Source: an uncultured virus (IMG/VR IMGVR_UViG_3300012988_000018) (Duplodnaviria > Heunggongvirae > Uroviricota > Caudoviricetes). Taken from it: a stretch of DNA of 20,000 bases. The stretch lies in IMG/VR virus record IMGVR_UViG_3300012988_000018; one strand, given 5' to 3'. Made by a program: the position numbers and the translations under genes. Each line of letters begins with the position of its first letter. Position 1 is the stretch's first letter. The notes beneath the pieces are model-generated. The model was not told the origin of the DNA. It did not search any database and saw only the letters and a program-made list of their open reading frames with translations. Positions 1-3,161 of the stretch are shown one piece after another.

Positions 1-230
1 GTGACACGTGTCGTCAGCGTCTTAGAGATCGCTGTCTTGGCACATTCCATCCCACAGGTCTTCTGGCCCCTGAAACGATAGGCGACGGTGAACGTCTTGC
101 TGCACGTTTCACACGTCAGGGTAACAGGATCGAAGCGTTTCGCGAAGCAATCGTGTGAACAGTACTTCTTGTCCTTCTTGTGTGACTTGAAGCTGATCCC
201 ACATTTTTGACAAGTGTAGTCATGCACCAT
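1..230 (-). CDS. Partial gene (runs off left edge): N-terminal zinc-finger repeats, probably of a free-standing homing endonuclease
   Basis: Not in ORF track. My translation from ATG at 230: MVHDYTCQKCGISFKSHKKDKKYCSHDCFAKRFDPVTLTCETCSKTFTVAYRFRGQKTCGMECAKTAISKTLTTRV. It has two CxxC...CxxxC units like the N-terminus of the endonuclease at 1515-2408. The nuclease domain is not visible. Confidence 0.7.
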   Translation of the reverse strand, partial: MVHDYTCQKCGISFKSHKKDKKYCSHDCFAKRFDPVTLTCETCSKTFTVAYRFRGQKTCGMECAKTAISKTLTTRV

Positions 231-236
231 CAAGTA

Positions 237-265
237 ATGATACAACGCTTTGTTAAGATGTTTAC
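237..265 (-). promoter_or_regulatory. Candidate promoter for a leaderless transcript of the zinc-finger gene
   Basis: -10-like TATCAT (242-237) ends 6 nt before the ATG at 230, with no SD. The -35 position reads GTAAAC (weak). Confidence 0.35.
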
Positions 266-280
266 CAGTAGAAAATCGTC

Positions 281-1552
281 CTAGAAGTCTAACCTGACGC
301 GGAACGTGAGGTCCCTCTCTGGTGACTTCTCCACGGGCCGAGACAGCTTCGCAACCGCGAGTAAGTTGTCGTTTGCGTCATACATGCCGACGCTGGTCAC
401 GAAGGTGAACGACTGTTGCGTGTCCTCCTGACCGATGTCGATGACCTGGATCCTGTTGTCAGTGTCCGTGTACGTTGGGTTCGACGAGTAGTTAAACTCG
501 TCTGCCTGTGAGCGACAGAAGATCAGGGTGCTGTTGATGTTAGTGACGTTTTGGAACGTGATGGCTGTCTGTGAGCCCGATCCGAACCGACATGACGCGA
601 TGTGATCGATGATGTTGTCGATCGAGGCACTGGTCACGAAGTCCGGGATCATCACTGACGAGGTCTGGGTCTGGGTGCCTGGGCCGCCTAAGGTTATCCT
701 TCCAAGCGGGTGCATGGCGTCGATCGTTCCCGACATGTACTGGCTCGCGCTGGTCACCTTCGACATGTCGAGGATGACGATGCCACGATCGTAGAACATC
801 AGGCCGACGTTACGTGCCGTGTTCGCTGAGTCGACGATGTTTCCGACCTGGCCACCGAACGACGTCAGTTTATTGGTCGCTGCTCCGATGTCCGTGTAGA
901 TAGCTGAGCCTGACGTCGAGGTGACGTAAAGATTTGGTGGTTGTAGCTGCGACTCAGCGGGAGCTGTGCCAGTAGCGTTGTAGTTGATCGACGCCGTCTG
1001 AAAGAACTTCATGGCAAACGTCTCTCGTTTGATCTGATCACGAGCAAAGAGACGCTTGAATGCGATGAACAGGCCCACGTCGATCTGGTCCGCGACGTCA
1101 GACGAGTCAAAGGGCGCCGTGAAGGCCTGCGTTGAATCTCCCAACAACGTGGCAGCGAACTGGCGATACACTTCCATCTTCTCACGCATCATCAACGATG
1201 ACGATGGAAACAGTTCCTTGCCTGCGGCATCAGTTCCCGTCTTGGTCACTGCAACAGTGTTACCATCTGGGAACAGGCCAACCGTCATGTCAAGGACAGG
1301 GTTAGCGGTCTGCAGCGTGAAATCCTGATCAAAGATCGTCTGGAACAACGAGCTCGTCACACCAGGACCGACACCTCCTGTCACGAAAACCTGGTACTTG
1401 CGACGGGAGACTGAACTGCTAACGTCTTCCTGGAGAACGTCTATAAGCTGATTCAGAAAACTCCTCGCTGTCTTAATGTCCGACGGCAAAATTTCTTTGA
1501 AGATTGCGATTTTTCTACCCTCCGAGTTTGACAACGATTCCGGAGTAATCAT
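281..1552 (-). CDS. Putative virion structural protein (baseplate/tail-collar-like C-terminus); start uncertain (ATG 1552 or ATC 1510)
   Basis: 423-aa ORF. The C-terminus FVTSVGMYDANDNLLAVAKLSRPVEKSPERDLTFRVRLDF resembles the hGh(F/Y)DxxxxLhAV motif of phage tail-collar/baseplate proteins. It is the last intact gene of the structural block in this window. Confidence 0.65.
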   Translation of the reverse strand: MITPESLSNSEGRKIAIFKEILPSDIKTARSFLNQLIDVLQEDVSSSVSRRKYQVFVTGGVGPGVTSSLFQTIFDQDFTLQTANPVLDMTVGLFPDGNTVAVTKTGTDAAGKELFPSSSLMMREKMEVYRQFAATLLGDSTQAFTAPFDSSDVADQIDVGLFIAFKRLFARDQIKRETFAMKFFQTASINYNATGTAPAESQLQPPNLYVTSTSGSAIYTDIGAATNKLTSFGGQVGNIVDSANTARNVGLMFYDRGIVILDMSKVTSASQYMSGTIDAMHPLGRITLGGPGTQTQTSSVMIPDFVTSASIDNIIDHIASCRFGSGSQTAITFQNVTNINSTLIFCRSQADEFNYSSNPTYTDTDNRIQVIDIGQEDTQQSFTFVTSVGMYDANDNLLAVAKLSRPVEKSPERDLTFRVRLDF

Positions 1553-2408
1553 TACTCTTGTGGCTCGCCAGGAACTCTTTATCAGTGATTCTAACTAACT
1601 TCTTACCTTGAGAAAGGAACCATTCGTCTTTTCTGCGATCAATATCGTACGAACTTTTTCCATTGGGATGCAACTGATCGTAAGGTTTGTCTAGACCGTG
1701 CCAAAACTCACCATCAAGTTCAACGTATACGTCAAGTGTTTTGACATAAGCGTCAATCAACCAAGGCTTTTTTCCGCCATGATCGATTTTTACTTGTTGA
1801 TCAATGTTGTCATGACCGTAACGCAATCGTAACCACTCAAGCAACAGCATCTCTGGTTTTGAAATGATCCAAGAACCAACTCGGCTTGCTGTCGTTCTGT
1901 ATCCCTTTTGACCTGCTTCACTTAAATTCGTTCGATTCTCAGGCAACGCCAGAGGATCCTTACCGAAACGCTTTATCACTGTCGCCTTTCTCTTTGCCTT
2001 CGGTCCGCGTGCTTTCAGCGGATGTTCTGCACCGTGACGCTCTATCATCGTTCGCTTGAACCTAGCATTCGATAATGACGTTGGCATCGATGGAGAGCTG
2101 GCCCCTGTGGTAACCAACCTAGAAGCAATCATCTTCTCGCTTGCGCCGGCGACCTGCGATGAGAACTCGACGCCGTAACGAGCGAGCTTTGTTTGCTTCC
2201 ACTGCTGTGCCAGTTTTCCGTTCGATCGACTCTTCTTGTTGCACGCTTTCGAACAAAACGTGAGCGCTCCGTTAGTTGAGTGAGCGAGCTTGTGACCATG
2301 CACGAACTCTTTTCCGCACTCATCACAGTTGAACACGTCACGACGGCGAACCTGTTGGGTGTTCCAACGCTTATGAAGATATGTCTCATCAATCGTCTTA
2401 ACGAACAT
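1515..2408 (-). CDS. Free-standing homing endonuclease, Vsr/DUF559-like PD-(D/E)XK nuclease with N-terminal zinc finger
   Basis: CDECGKEF...FCSKAC zinc finger; three K-x-T-x-x-x-R-(Y/H/F)-G repeats; C-terminal SKPE...LIDAYV...VELDGEFWHG...D..KD...LVRI. Start moved from 2438 to ATG 2408 (297 aa) on promoter geometry. DNA looks more AT-rich than its neighbours by eye. Confidence 0.85.
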   Translation of the reverse strand: MFVKTIDETYLHKRWNTQQVRRRDVFNCDECGKEFVHGHKLAHSTNGALTFCSKACNKKSRSNGKLAQQWKQTKLARYGVEFSSQVAGASEKMIASRLVTTGASSPSMPTSLSNARFKRTMIERHGAEHPLKARGPKAKRKATVIKRFGKDPLALPENRTNLSEAGQKGYRTTASRVGSWIISKPEMLLLEWLRLRYGHDNIDQQVKIDHGGKKPWLIDAYVKTLDVYVELDGEFWHGLDKPYDQLHPNGKSSYDIDRRKDEWFLSQGKKLVRITDKEFLASHKSNDYSGIVVKLGG

Positions 2409-2415
2409 CAAACAG

Positions 2416-2444
2416 AAGGTAACACTTCTTTGATGCATCGTAAA
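2416..2444 (-). promoter_or_regulatory. Sigma70-like promoter of the endonuclease gene (probably leaderless)
   Basis: TTTACG (2444-2439), 17-nt spacer ending TGT (extended -10 TGn), TACCTT (2421-2416), then 7 nt to ATG 2408. Confidence 0.55.
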
Positions 2445-3161
2445 TTACAGATTCTTGTCAATGATGACGCCGATGTCCTTGACGGCTCCTGATTGGACGC
2501 CGGTCACCTTGACGAAGACCTTGATGCGAGACTTGTTGGCCGTCGTCCCATAGACCGTGAACAGCGCGTCCGTCAGGCTCTTCACTGACAGAGTGAACTG
2601 TACCGAGCTGCCACCAAAGCTGTTCTCAGCAGGCGACCTGGTCAGGATGTAGGTGGCGCGCTGTTGTCCATCGATGTTTTCTGGCGTTTGGCTCAAAACT
2701 TGCATGAAGAGGTTCGGAACCTCGATGATGAACGTCTGATCGCGAAGCTCTACGTCGATCGTCGTCTCGTTCTTGATCGTCTGCTCGACAGTGGCAGTCG
2801 CCGTCTTTTGTTGGTTACGACCCAGGGTGATGACACCATTCAGGCTGTCGACGTTAGCGTCACCTGATAGCGACATCGTCGGCAGGCGAAGCAGGTTTGG
2901 GTTTGACACGCTGATCAGCTTGTACTTCTGCGAGTGTTGTTGGTTGGTCAACGCCTCAAAGATCGGAGTGTTCTTCTCGATCTTCTCCTTGCCGACAGTA
3001 CGACCGTACTTGCTGATGACGTTGTAGTTGACCTCATCATCGCCCAGAGCGAACTTGTGAATTGAGAACGAGCCGTCGTTGCGAGCCAAGAACTGACGTC
3101 CAATGTCTGTCAACACGGCATCAAGGACGATATTATTACTCGAGTGATCAAGAAATCCCAT
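2445..3161 (-). CDS. Putative virion structural protein with tail-collar/baseplate-like N-terminus
   Basis: 238-aa ORF with SD AAGGA upstream. N-terminus MGFLDHSSNNIVLDAVLTDIGRQFLA...IHKFALGDDEVNY; beta-strand-rich C-terminal part. Confidence 0.7.
   Translation of the reverse strand: MGFLDHSSNNIVLDAVLTDIGRQFLARNDGSFSIHKFALGDDEVNYNVISKYGRTVGKEKIEKNTPIFEALTNQQHSQKYKLISVSNPNLLRLPTMSLSGDANVDSLNGVITLGRNQQKTATATVEQTIKNETTIDVELRDQTFIIEVPNLFMQVLSQTPENIDGQQRATYILTRSPAENSFGGSSVQFTLSVKSLTDALFTVYGTTANKSRIKVFVKVTGVQSGAVKDIGVIIDKNL

Follow-up and report, generated by a model that had tools for sequence, protein, structure and literature searches.

The AUU codon of infC is a natural bacterial start codon other than AUG, GUG or UUG. 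In Escherichia coli reporters, AUC was one of four near-cognate codons that initiated at 1-2% of the AUG level, and proteins made from AUC and ACG constructs carried an N-terminal Met by mass spectrometry (10.1101/063800). Initiation factor 3 (IF3) counteracts non-canonical starts in E. coli, and re-initiation uses initiator tRNA, IF2 and IF3 (PMC2268962). Among selfish nuclease genes, the free-standing seg and mob genes of T4-like phages exemplify "intronless homing" (PMC2988022), and a composite EDxHD motif has been described for the I-Bth0305I family (PMC3239194). Here we analyzed a 20,000-nucleotide (nt) stretch of DNA (the window) from an uncultured tailed virus of the class Caudoviricetes (IMG/VR record IMGVR_UViG_3300012988_000018), in which a conserved gene of 409 codons follows a nuclease gene. 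We consider it probable that this gene is initiated at a near-cognate ATC codon, at positions 1510-1508, which lies within a mobile nuclease cassette. The features of the locus are as follows.

281..1510, minus strand: conserved phage gene, 409 codons from the ATC, stop TAG at 283-281
1508..1510, minus strand: ATC, putative near-cognate start codon, aligning with the ATG, GTG or TTG of homologs
1511..1514, minus strand: spacer AAAA (4 nt) from the nuclease stop to the ATC
1518..1523, minus strand: Shine-Dalgarno sequence GGAGGG, from the final two codons (Gly-Gly) of the nuclease, 7 nt before the ATC
1550..1552, minus strand: in-frame ATG within the nuclease gene, rejected as the start on homolog comparison
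1515..2438, minus strand: nuclease gene, 307 amino acids (aa) from the ATG at 2438, stop TAG at 1517-1515, predicted free-standing homing endonuclease
2445..3161, minus strand: upstream conserved gene, 238 aa (P0003), stop TAA at 2447-2445

This locus resembles each of the known systems in part. Like the EDxHD family of I-Bth0305I (PMC3239194), it involves a nuclease with a predicted Vsr-like fold, here as a present-or-absent insertion in phages; unlike I-Bth0305I, the nuclease is free-standing, outside any intron or intein and with its own start and stop, and its N terminus consists of a Cys-rich finger and DUF7487 repeats instead of NUMOD motifs. As with seg and mob, the nuclease gene is inserted between two conserved genes, and, as in several T4 nuclease genes for which coupling has been proposed, its start lacks a Shine-Dalgarno sequence and lies near the upstream stop (PMC2988022). 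The T4 account, however, concerns translation of the nuclease itself (PMC2988022), whereas here the initiation site of the downstream host gene sits inside the nuclease gene. The very short distance from stop to start and the Shine-Dalgarno sequence within the upstream open reading frame (ORF) are also found in termination-reinitiation coupling (PMC2268962), of which the known examples have canonical starts. Like the AUU of infC, the ATC is a one-mismatch neighbor of AUG behind a Shine-Dalgarno sequence, but it accompanies a mobile selfish gene, gives way to ACG in some relatives and lies 4 nt after a stop codon. No description of a nuclease-linked near-cognate start was found in full-text searches of the literature outside subscription journals.

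The minus-strand sequence of the junction is AAA CTC GGA GGG TAG AAAA ATC GCA ATC TTC AAA GAA, and the ATC is in frame with the ORF at 281-1552, the longest ORF of the 409-codon gene. The first-pass annotation, which was made from the letters of the window, had reported CTC-GGA-GGG-TAG-AAAA-ATC-GCA at these coordinates, with GGAGGG formed by the Gly-Gly codons of the nuclease 7 nt ahead of an in-frame ATC. Both points were reproduced exactly on rereading, and three run assemblies contained identical letters. It had likewise singled out the ATG at 1552-1550, which is indeed the sole in-frame upstream ATG, lies inside the nuclease ORF, lacks a good Shine-Dalgarno sequence and adds 14 residues, MITPESLSNSEGRK. 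In-frame TTG codons are located 8 codons upstream of the ATC and 7 codons downstream of it (1489-1487).

We examined whether the ATC could be a sequencing or assembly error, for which one G-to-C change would suffice in a single genome, or whether the allele could be a decaying pseudogene. Three sequencing runs, labelled soil metagenome, contain the whole stretch, and their Logan contigs (X1-X3, word depth 10-12) showed 0, 0 and 1 differences from the window over 900-2700. The single difference sits at 1746 and none at 1508, where a G>C error had been flagged for checking and all run-assembly contigs show ATC. Since these runs may include the source sample of the window, they exclude an assembly slip and add no independent populations. 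ATC or ACG was also found at this position in contigs from many samples with diverged flanks, and the ORF is intact and conserved across 409 codons, leaving error or decay with a negligible chance. That the junction is more than a chance arrangement is supported by the comparative data below and not by the single sequence.

To determine where relatives of the 409-codon gene begin, we searched viral contigs and obtained 70 loci (L001-L070), 2 of which were cut at the 5' end, leaving 68 assessable. The position of the window's ATC was occupied by ATG in 40 loci, GTG in 10 and TTG in 1, and another 9 had a diverged N terminus with an ATG within 5 codons. A canonical start was thus present at this position or at most 5 codons away in 60 of the 68 loci, whereas 7 carried ATC and 1 carried ACG. 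The common N terminus is M-A-T/I-F-K-E-I-L-P-S-D-I-K, and M/V/L-A-x-F-K-E was found at the ATC position in 51 loci, which bears out the earlier prediction that homologs would show M-A-x-F-K there. In the nuclease-free layout, the stop of the 238-aa gene is ~20 nt before the ATG, and a GGAG lies ~10 nt upstream of the ATG. The ten GTG-start loci without the nuclease were L005, L009, L010, L020, L023, L025, L026, L029, L030 and L058, and GTG starts were commoner in some clades of the gene family. Even among nuclease-free alleles, the start codon of the gene seems to change unusually readily.

A search of 5.8 billion database proteins yielded 4162 relatives at E <= 1e-10, all unnamed or "hypothetical", of which the best 120 were inspected. 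Among these 120, 106 start at the motif (M in 101, V in 5), and 7 longer calls had I in 5 cases and T in 2 at the start position, preceded in each case by S/W-E-G, which is the Shine-Dalgarno sequence read in the frame of the gene. One further longer call had L at the start position, and six calls were shortened. The extended entries are P0005, P0018, P0021, P0093, P0100, P0105, P0106 and P0109, and the shortened ones P0049, P0094, P0096, P0113, P0115 and P0118. None of these extended or shortened entries had a near-cognate codon as its called start.

We next compared the genes lying ahead of the near-cognate and canonical starts. All eight near-cognate loci had either a close nuclease homolog or the nuclease 3' junction ahead of the gene. 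Seven carried a close homolog (45-64% identity), and the eighth, L004, has a GIY-YIG gene ahead, followed by the same closing letters, GGGTAGAAAA-ATC. No close homolog was present in any of the 60 canonical loci; a distant homolog (26-27%) was found in 3 of them, with GTG or ATG starts, and L007 has a GIY-YIG gene before an intact native leader and starts at ATG. Searches that began from the nuclease, in viral and metagenome contigs, added L076, L082/L083, L084, L154, L155 and L160. Every close nuclease homolog whose 3' end was on the contig was followed by this gene with an ATC or ACG start; L159, in which the nuclease 3' end is missing from the contig, was left out. Counted by DNA sequence, there were nine junction variants, seven with ATC, two with ACG and none with ATG, GTG or TTG.

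Window and L001: GGAGGG-TAG-AAAA-ATC
L155: GGAGGG-TAG-ACCC-ATC
L076: GGAGGG-TGA-AAAC-ATC
L154: GGAGGG-TGA-GAAA-ATC
L018 group: GGAGGGG-TAA-TCCC-ATC
L084: GGAGGGA-TAA-GTTT-ACG
L028, L082 and L083: GGAGGA-TAA-ACCA-ACG
L160: AGGGGA-AGAGAAA-ATC, where the ORF of a shortened nuclease extends 15 nt beyond the ATC
L004: GGTAGGG-TAG-AAAA-ATC

The spacer from stop to start was 4 nt in eight of the nine variants, with the letters AAAA, ACCC, AAAC, GAAA, TCCC, GTTT or ACCA; the exception was L160, with its 15-nt overlap. Because ATC or ACG was seen at every occurrence of this nuclease family at the site, the near-cognate start appears to be part of a mobile cassette and not a one-off accident, a point that goes beyond the first-pass annotation. 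Its claim that the invading gene replaced the initiation region was also upheld, as the native intergenic region with its weaker Shine-Dalgarno sequence is absent and the last codons of the nuclease provide GGAGG. Distant members of the nuclease family occur at other sites (L085, L090 and L095, a partial check by reading), and since the genes that follow them begin at an ordinary ATG, the near-cognate feature appears to belong to this cassette and not to the whole nuclease family.

Two side observations concern members of this family. L160 (662-1123, on a marine-type contig) encodes a 154-aa nuclease without DUF7487 repeats that retains a finger remnant and the nuclease domain. At another site of distant nucleases, L101 (2855-2930) reads P-R-E-I-D-F-I-T-D with ATC, and L092 (2900-2960) reads P-R-E-M-N-F-I-S-D with ATG; a GTG lies 5 codons upstream in L101, so its ATC may be an ordinary case.

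Several lines of evidence bear on use of the near-cognate codon. In nuclease-bearing alleles, codons 2-40 had a ratio of nonsynonymous to synonymous differences (pN/pS) of 0.08-0.34 at a pS of ~0.5-1; the differences are mostly synonymous, indicating purifying selection and hence translation in this frame. This also bears on a start at a downstream canonical codon such as the TTG at 1489, which would give a shortened protein with the ATC as a leader Ile codon. An in-frame TTG does lie 7 codons after the ATC, and P0096 and P0113 are called in that way, but the TTG is CTC, TTA and CTC in L001, L004 and L018, no Shine-Dalgarno sequence precedes it, and codons 2-40 of nuclease-bearing alleles are under purifying selection; we regard it as highly unlikely. 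At the start position itself, ATC was found in 7 of 7 Ile-type junctions, whereas nearby ordinary Ile codons vary among ATC, ATT and ATA; shared descent may account for part of this constancy.

The predicted Shine-Dalgarno pairing, calculated with a generic anti-Shine-Dalgarno sequence that may not be that of the host, was stronger in the near-cognate alleles than in the others (median -9.9 vs -6.1 kcal/mol, n = 10 vs 37 upstream sequences; Mann-Whitney p 1.6e-6, on related rows). The near-cognate alleles had the strongest pairing in the family, at a spacing of 7-8 nt, and the GGAGGG of the window paired at -10.0 kcal/mol. A strong site offsetting a weak codon is what would be expected if the near-cognate codon is used. 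Together with the comparison of start positions, these sequence data suggest that the near-cognate alleles start at ATC or ACG.

Other observations weigh against this reading. AUC and other near-cognate codons are weak starts in E. coli (10.1101/063800), and, should the product be an abundant virion protein, a weak start would be costly. Because the counted loci share ancestry, the independent events behind the association are fewer than the loci. In the nuclease tree, the ATC cassettes grouped together (SH-aLRT, a Shimodaira-Hasegawa-like approximate likelihood ratio, of 89), with the ACG lineages and L160 branching without resolution at the base, a topology for which one or two switches between ACG and ATC suffice. 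A search of sequencing runs listed no RNA run as containing this stretch. In four of the closest variants, namely the window, L001, L155 and L076, an ATG or GTG is found in frame 14 codons ahead of the ATC, making an extended form possible in them. The 4-nt spacer always sets the gene in the +1 frame relative to the nuclease, an offset that is consistent with a frameshift fusion as well.

A start at the upstream ATG at 1552, giving a protein with the 14-residue extension, is what gene callers annotate; extended calls of this kind are found in public databases (P0005, P0018, P0021, P0093 and P0105), the codon is in frame and its counterparts in L001, L155 and L076 lie at equal distance. However, the ATG arises from Asn/Gly-Asp codons of the nuclease in another frame, the extension being nuclease C-terminal coding sequence read out of frame, and counterparts of the window's ATG were found only in its nearest relatives. 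In 5 of the 10 distinct upstream contexts (L004, the L018 group, L028/L082/L083, L154 and L160), none of ATG, GTG and TTG occurs between the last in-frame stop and the near-cognate codon, which makes an upstream canonical start impossible in them. The extension is not conserved, so this refutation named in the first-pass annotation did not hold, and 106 of the best 120 database relatives begin at the motif. Given also its lack of a good Shine-Dalgarno sequence, we attach very little probability to the ATG at 1552 as the start.

The frame relationship would also be accounted for if ribosomes shifted into the +1 frame on the Gly codon that precedes the stop, as in prfB, and so made the gene product as a fusion to the nuclease. 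In favor of this, the codon ahead of the stop is GGG or GGA and is accompanied by a Shine-Dalgarno-like run. In prfB, the Shine-Dalgarno sequence lies 3 nt upstream of the shift codon. Here it overlaps the would-be P-site codon, and GGA-TAA variants cannot re-pair after the shift (GAT). Moreover, L160 has no stop at the site, its nuclease ORF continuing 15 nt past the ATC, and in L004 the fusion partner would be an unrelated GIY-YIG gene. A frameshift also leaves unexplained why every variant has a one-mismatch neighbor of ATG at this position. These results make a frameshift fusion very unlikely, though marginally less so than the shifted start sites considered above, and favor near-cognate initiation at the ATC.

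We investigated the potential involvement of RNA elements and unusual tRNAs. The junction RNA folded no better than shuffled sequences (z -0.09), and a nine-sequence consensus structure with 5 pairs had 0 compensatory changes; RNA structure as a regulator of the junction was therefore rejected. An Rfam scan of 1200-2800 gave no match, intron or other, at E up to 1. No initiator-like tRNA for AUC or ACG was detected among 8 tRNA genes in 130 kb (~38% of the genome). Outside the window (G000:C1:95499-95647 and 25321-25688), ARAGORN called a tmRNA gene and two tandem tRNA-like genes, the latter assigned as Glu|SeC ("tc") and having an unusual anticodon loop that could present UCA; in the same phage record it also called a tRNA-Ile(TAT), two Gly and three Ser tRNAs.

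We also examined whether the nuclease could reside in a self-splicing intron, in which case splicing would join an upstream ATG to the GCA at 1507. The family prototype is intron-encoded (PMC3239194), and a probable relic of the 5' end of the gene, which includes an ATG, lies ahead of the nuclease.

2413..2444, minus strand: probable relic of the 5' end of the 409-codon gene, TTTACG-ATG-CA-TCAAAGAAGTGTTACC-TTCTG, in front of the nuclease

The relic lies between the stop of the upstream gene, which it directly follows, and the probable true start of the nuclease. Its 16-nt core (2433-2418) is identical in L076 (L076:1960-2000), where the relic reads GTTTACG-TCT-TTCAAAGAAGTGTTACC. Read by eye, it gives I-K-E-V-L-P-S in one frame, and the shared 16 nt give K-E-V-L-P, residues 5-9 of the gene. 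The relic rests on a match of 10-11 nt that barely stands out from shuffled sequences (1 and 4 of 200; 36 comparisons in all). The relic is, however, out of frame and is absent or weak in 3 of 5 assessable cassettes; in addition, the nuclease ORF fills the insert, the upstream gene has its own stop, and neither an Rfam match nor a conserved structure at the junction was found. An intron therefore has next to no likelihood. The GTTT-ACG of the relic equals the ACG junction of L084, and the relic may derive from an older ACG-type junction, hinting at serial invasions of the site.

The mobility of the cassette was examined by phylogenetic analysis. In a tree of the downstream gene (42 rows), cassette-bearing alleles were scattered among nuclease-free ATG alleles, with at least 6 changes. 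A tree forcing the cassette alleles together was 95.8 log-likelihood units worse (approximately unbiased test, p-AU 0.002), the forced group having been defined by the nuclease but after a first tree was known. The L160 gene fragment is nearest (72%) to clades otherwise without the nuclease. Between the window and L001, identity was 91% in the downstream protein and 64% in the nuclease, and the cassette was present or absent at one site among close relatives. These sequence comparisons indicate that, in several lineages of the gene, the native intergenic region has given way to the cassette.

Composition was also altered next to the insertion. The AT-rich first codons noticed in the first-pass annotation were evident, with a GC content of 0.40 over the initial 60 nt and of 0.54 over the gene as a whole. 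The G+C content at third codon positions (GC3) of the 409-codon gene rose from 0.55 in the first 20 codons through 0.60 and 0.65 to 0.73 after codon 80; it was 0.49 in the nuclease and 0.80 in the last 40 codons of the upstream gene. These values, which come from short segments, fit a conversion tract that would extend downstream only; a gradient in the flanking gene also fits co-conversion, as with the free-standing nucleases of T4-like phages.

We then analyzed the nuclease. It matched homing or HNH endonucleases in PHROGs with modest E-values, and Pfam recognized DUF7487 repeats only, in 7 of 7 aligned homologs. The architecture comprises an N-terminal Cys-rich finger, the DUF7487 repeats and a C-terminal Vsr-like (EDxHD-type) domain. 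The C-terminal 123 residues, modelled by AlphaFold with 45 homologs, reached a predicted local distance difference test score (pLDDT) of 89.8. The best Foldseek match of the model was 3r3p, the catalytic domain of I-Bth0305I (probability 0.99, E 0.011, template modelling (TM) score 0.49-0.61), followed by Vsr (1cw0, probability 0.96) and then other PD-(D/E)XK nucleases. A sequence profile of the 45 homologs matched 3r3p_A at E 0.026, a modest value like that of the structural match. Asp229, His247 and Asp267 are invariant among the 45 homologs and Glu196 nearly so, a set that may correspond to the composite EDxHD motif described for the I-Bth0305I family. The nuclease is thus predicted to be a free-standing EDxHD-type (I-Bth0305I-like) homing endonuclease. 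A single-protein search found no relatives of the nuclease, whereas alignment-based searches did. The first ATG of the nuclease ORF (2438) lies 6 nt past the upstream stop without a Shine-Dalgarno sequence. Homologs align from the second ATG, at 2408 (in L018 and L076, from a GTG at the corresponding position), which makes 2408 the probable true start.

In the mechanism that we propose, the cassette would consist of an EDxHD-type nuclease gene, an embedded Shine-Dalgarno sequence, a stop, 4 nt and ATC or ACG. The GGAGGG in the last two nuclease codons would drive initiation 7 nt downstream, and 30S subunits or just-terminated ribosomes held by this strong site would initiate at AUC or ACG. The ATC at 1510-1508 would presumably be read by initiator tRNA, so that the protein would still begin Met-Ala-Ile-Phe-Lys-Glu. 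Ribosomes that finish the nuclease ORF 4 nt before the ATC probably help initiation, and the 4-nt spacing in eight of nine variants fits such coupling to nuclease translation.

As to why ATG is avoided, the most likely of three possible readings is dosage: a strong site combined with ATG would overproduce the protein, and a weak codon, moving together with the cassette, would bring the level back down. Lock-in, by which loss of the nuclease is made costly and the selfish gene is favored, fits the retained junction of L004. Self-immunity, by which the G-to-C change would shield an allele against the nuclease that it carries, is a minor possibility, weakened because I-Bth0305I tolerates single substitutions, few of which lower its cleavage (PMC3239194). 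No other consistent difference between nuclease-bearing and nuclease-free alleles was found in the first codons. A stronger form of lock-in, that the cassette holds an essential phage gene hostage because the native site is gone and the weak start needs the nuclease-borne site and ribosomes, strikes us as tentative and on balance doubtful.

We also investigated the 409-codon gene product and its neighbors. The product matched no Pfam, PHROG or NCBIfam family, and a 33-sequence profile had no match in the Protein Data Bank (PDB). Its AlphaFold model was poor (pLDDT 59.1), and Foldseek returned nothing at E up to 0.001. The best VIA-align rows were pieces of phage baseplates, tails or necks, but their Z of 4.6-5.1 falls inside the stated noise of the tool, and a protein atlas labelled it only "hypothetical protein, Viruses". 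In Flavobacterium phage immuto, a distant relative is flanked by baseplate-wedge and tail-fibre genes. These results weakly suggest that the gene is structural, possibly part of a baseplate/tail-fibre module. Searches of phage records with the neighboring 830-aa and 674-aa proteins (tblastn) gave no match, and a phage collection had no nucleotide match to the window region. The virus record has 129,880 bases, and because this is estimated to be only 38% of the genome, the source virus is probably a jumbo phage.

Outside the window (G000:C1:47761-50358), an 865-aa protein starts M-S-F-F-K-V-E and ends ...KIKHDF; its ends resemble the N-terminal motif and the ...RVRLDF end of the 409-codon gene product. 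In several related loci, residues 331-423 are weakly matched a second time a few kb downstream. By these similarities, the 865-aa protein is probably a paralog in the same module. Just downstream of the 409-codon gene lies a further nuclease gene.

3..245, minus strand: second nuclease gene, 5' part, with a Cys-rich finger, different from the first

This gene runs from window positions 3-245 to G000:C1:51008 and encodes ~320 aa with several Cys-rich fingers and a C-terminal PDF...VEVKP motif of PD-(D/E)XK type; the gene after it starts at ATG. With a different nuclease gene on each side, the 409-codon gene sits in a layout resembling the "HEG islands" of homing endonuclease genes (PMC10055350).

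As far as the sequence tells, the interpretation of the first-pass annotation is supported, and the phenomenon is wider than had been noted. Public gene calls for the cassette-type alleles would accordingly be in error, with 8 extended through the nuclease end and 6 too short among the best 120 of the 4162 relatives. If initiation at ATC and ACG is true, these alleles would represent natural, repeatedly conserved AUC and ACG start codons in bacterial viruses. The same gene is found with five start codons (ATG, GTG, TTG, ATC and ACG) and with Shine-Dalgarno sequences that are weak in some alleles and strong in others, and these built-in comparisons make the trade-off between start codon and Shine-Dalgarno strength directly testable. 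If the gene is in fact held hostage, deletion of the selfish gene would cripple the host gene, a translational addiction that would prolong the life of the nuclease after fixation and would explain both the 0 ATG revertants in nine variants and the old junction kept in L004 by the GIY-YIG gene that displaced the nuclease there. With initiation at ATC or ACG, whether or not the gene is a hostage, a homing endonuclease gene would do more than leave its neighbor undisturbed; it would rewire the translation of that neighbor.

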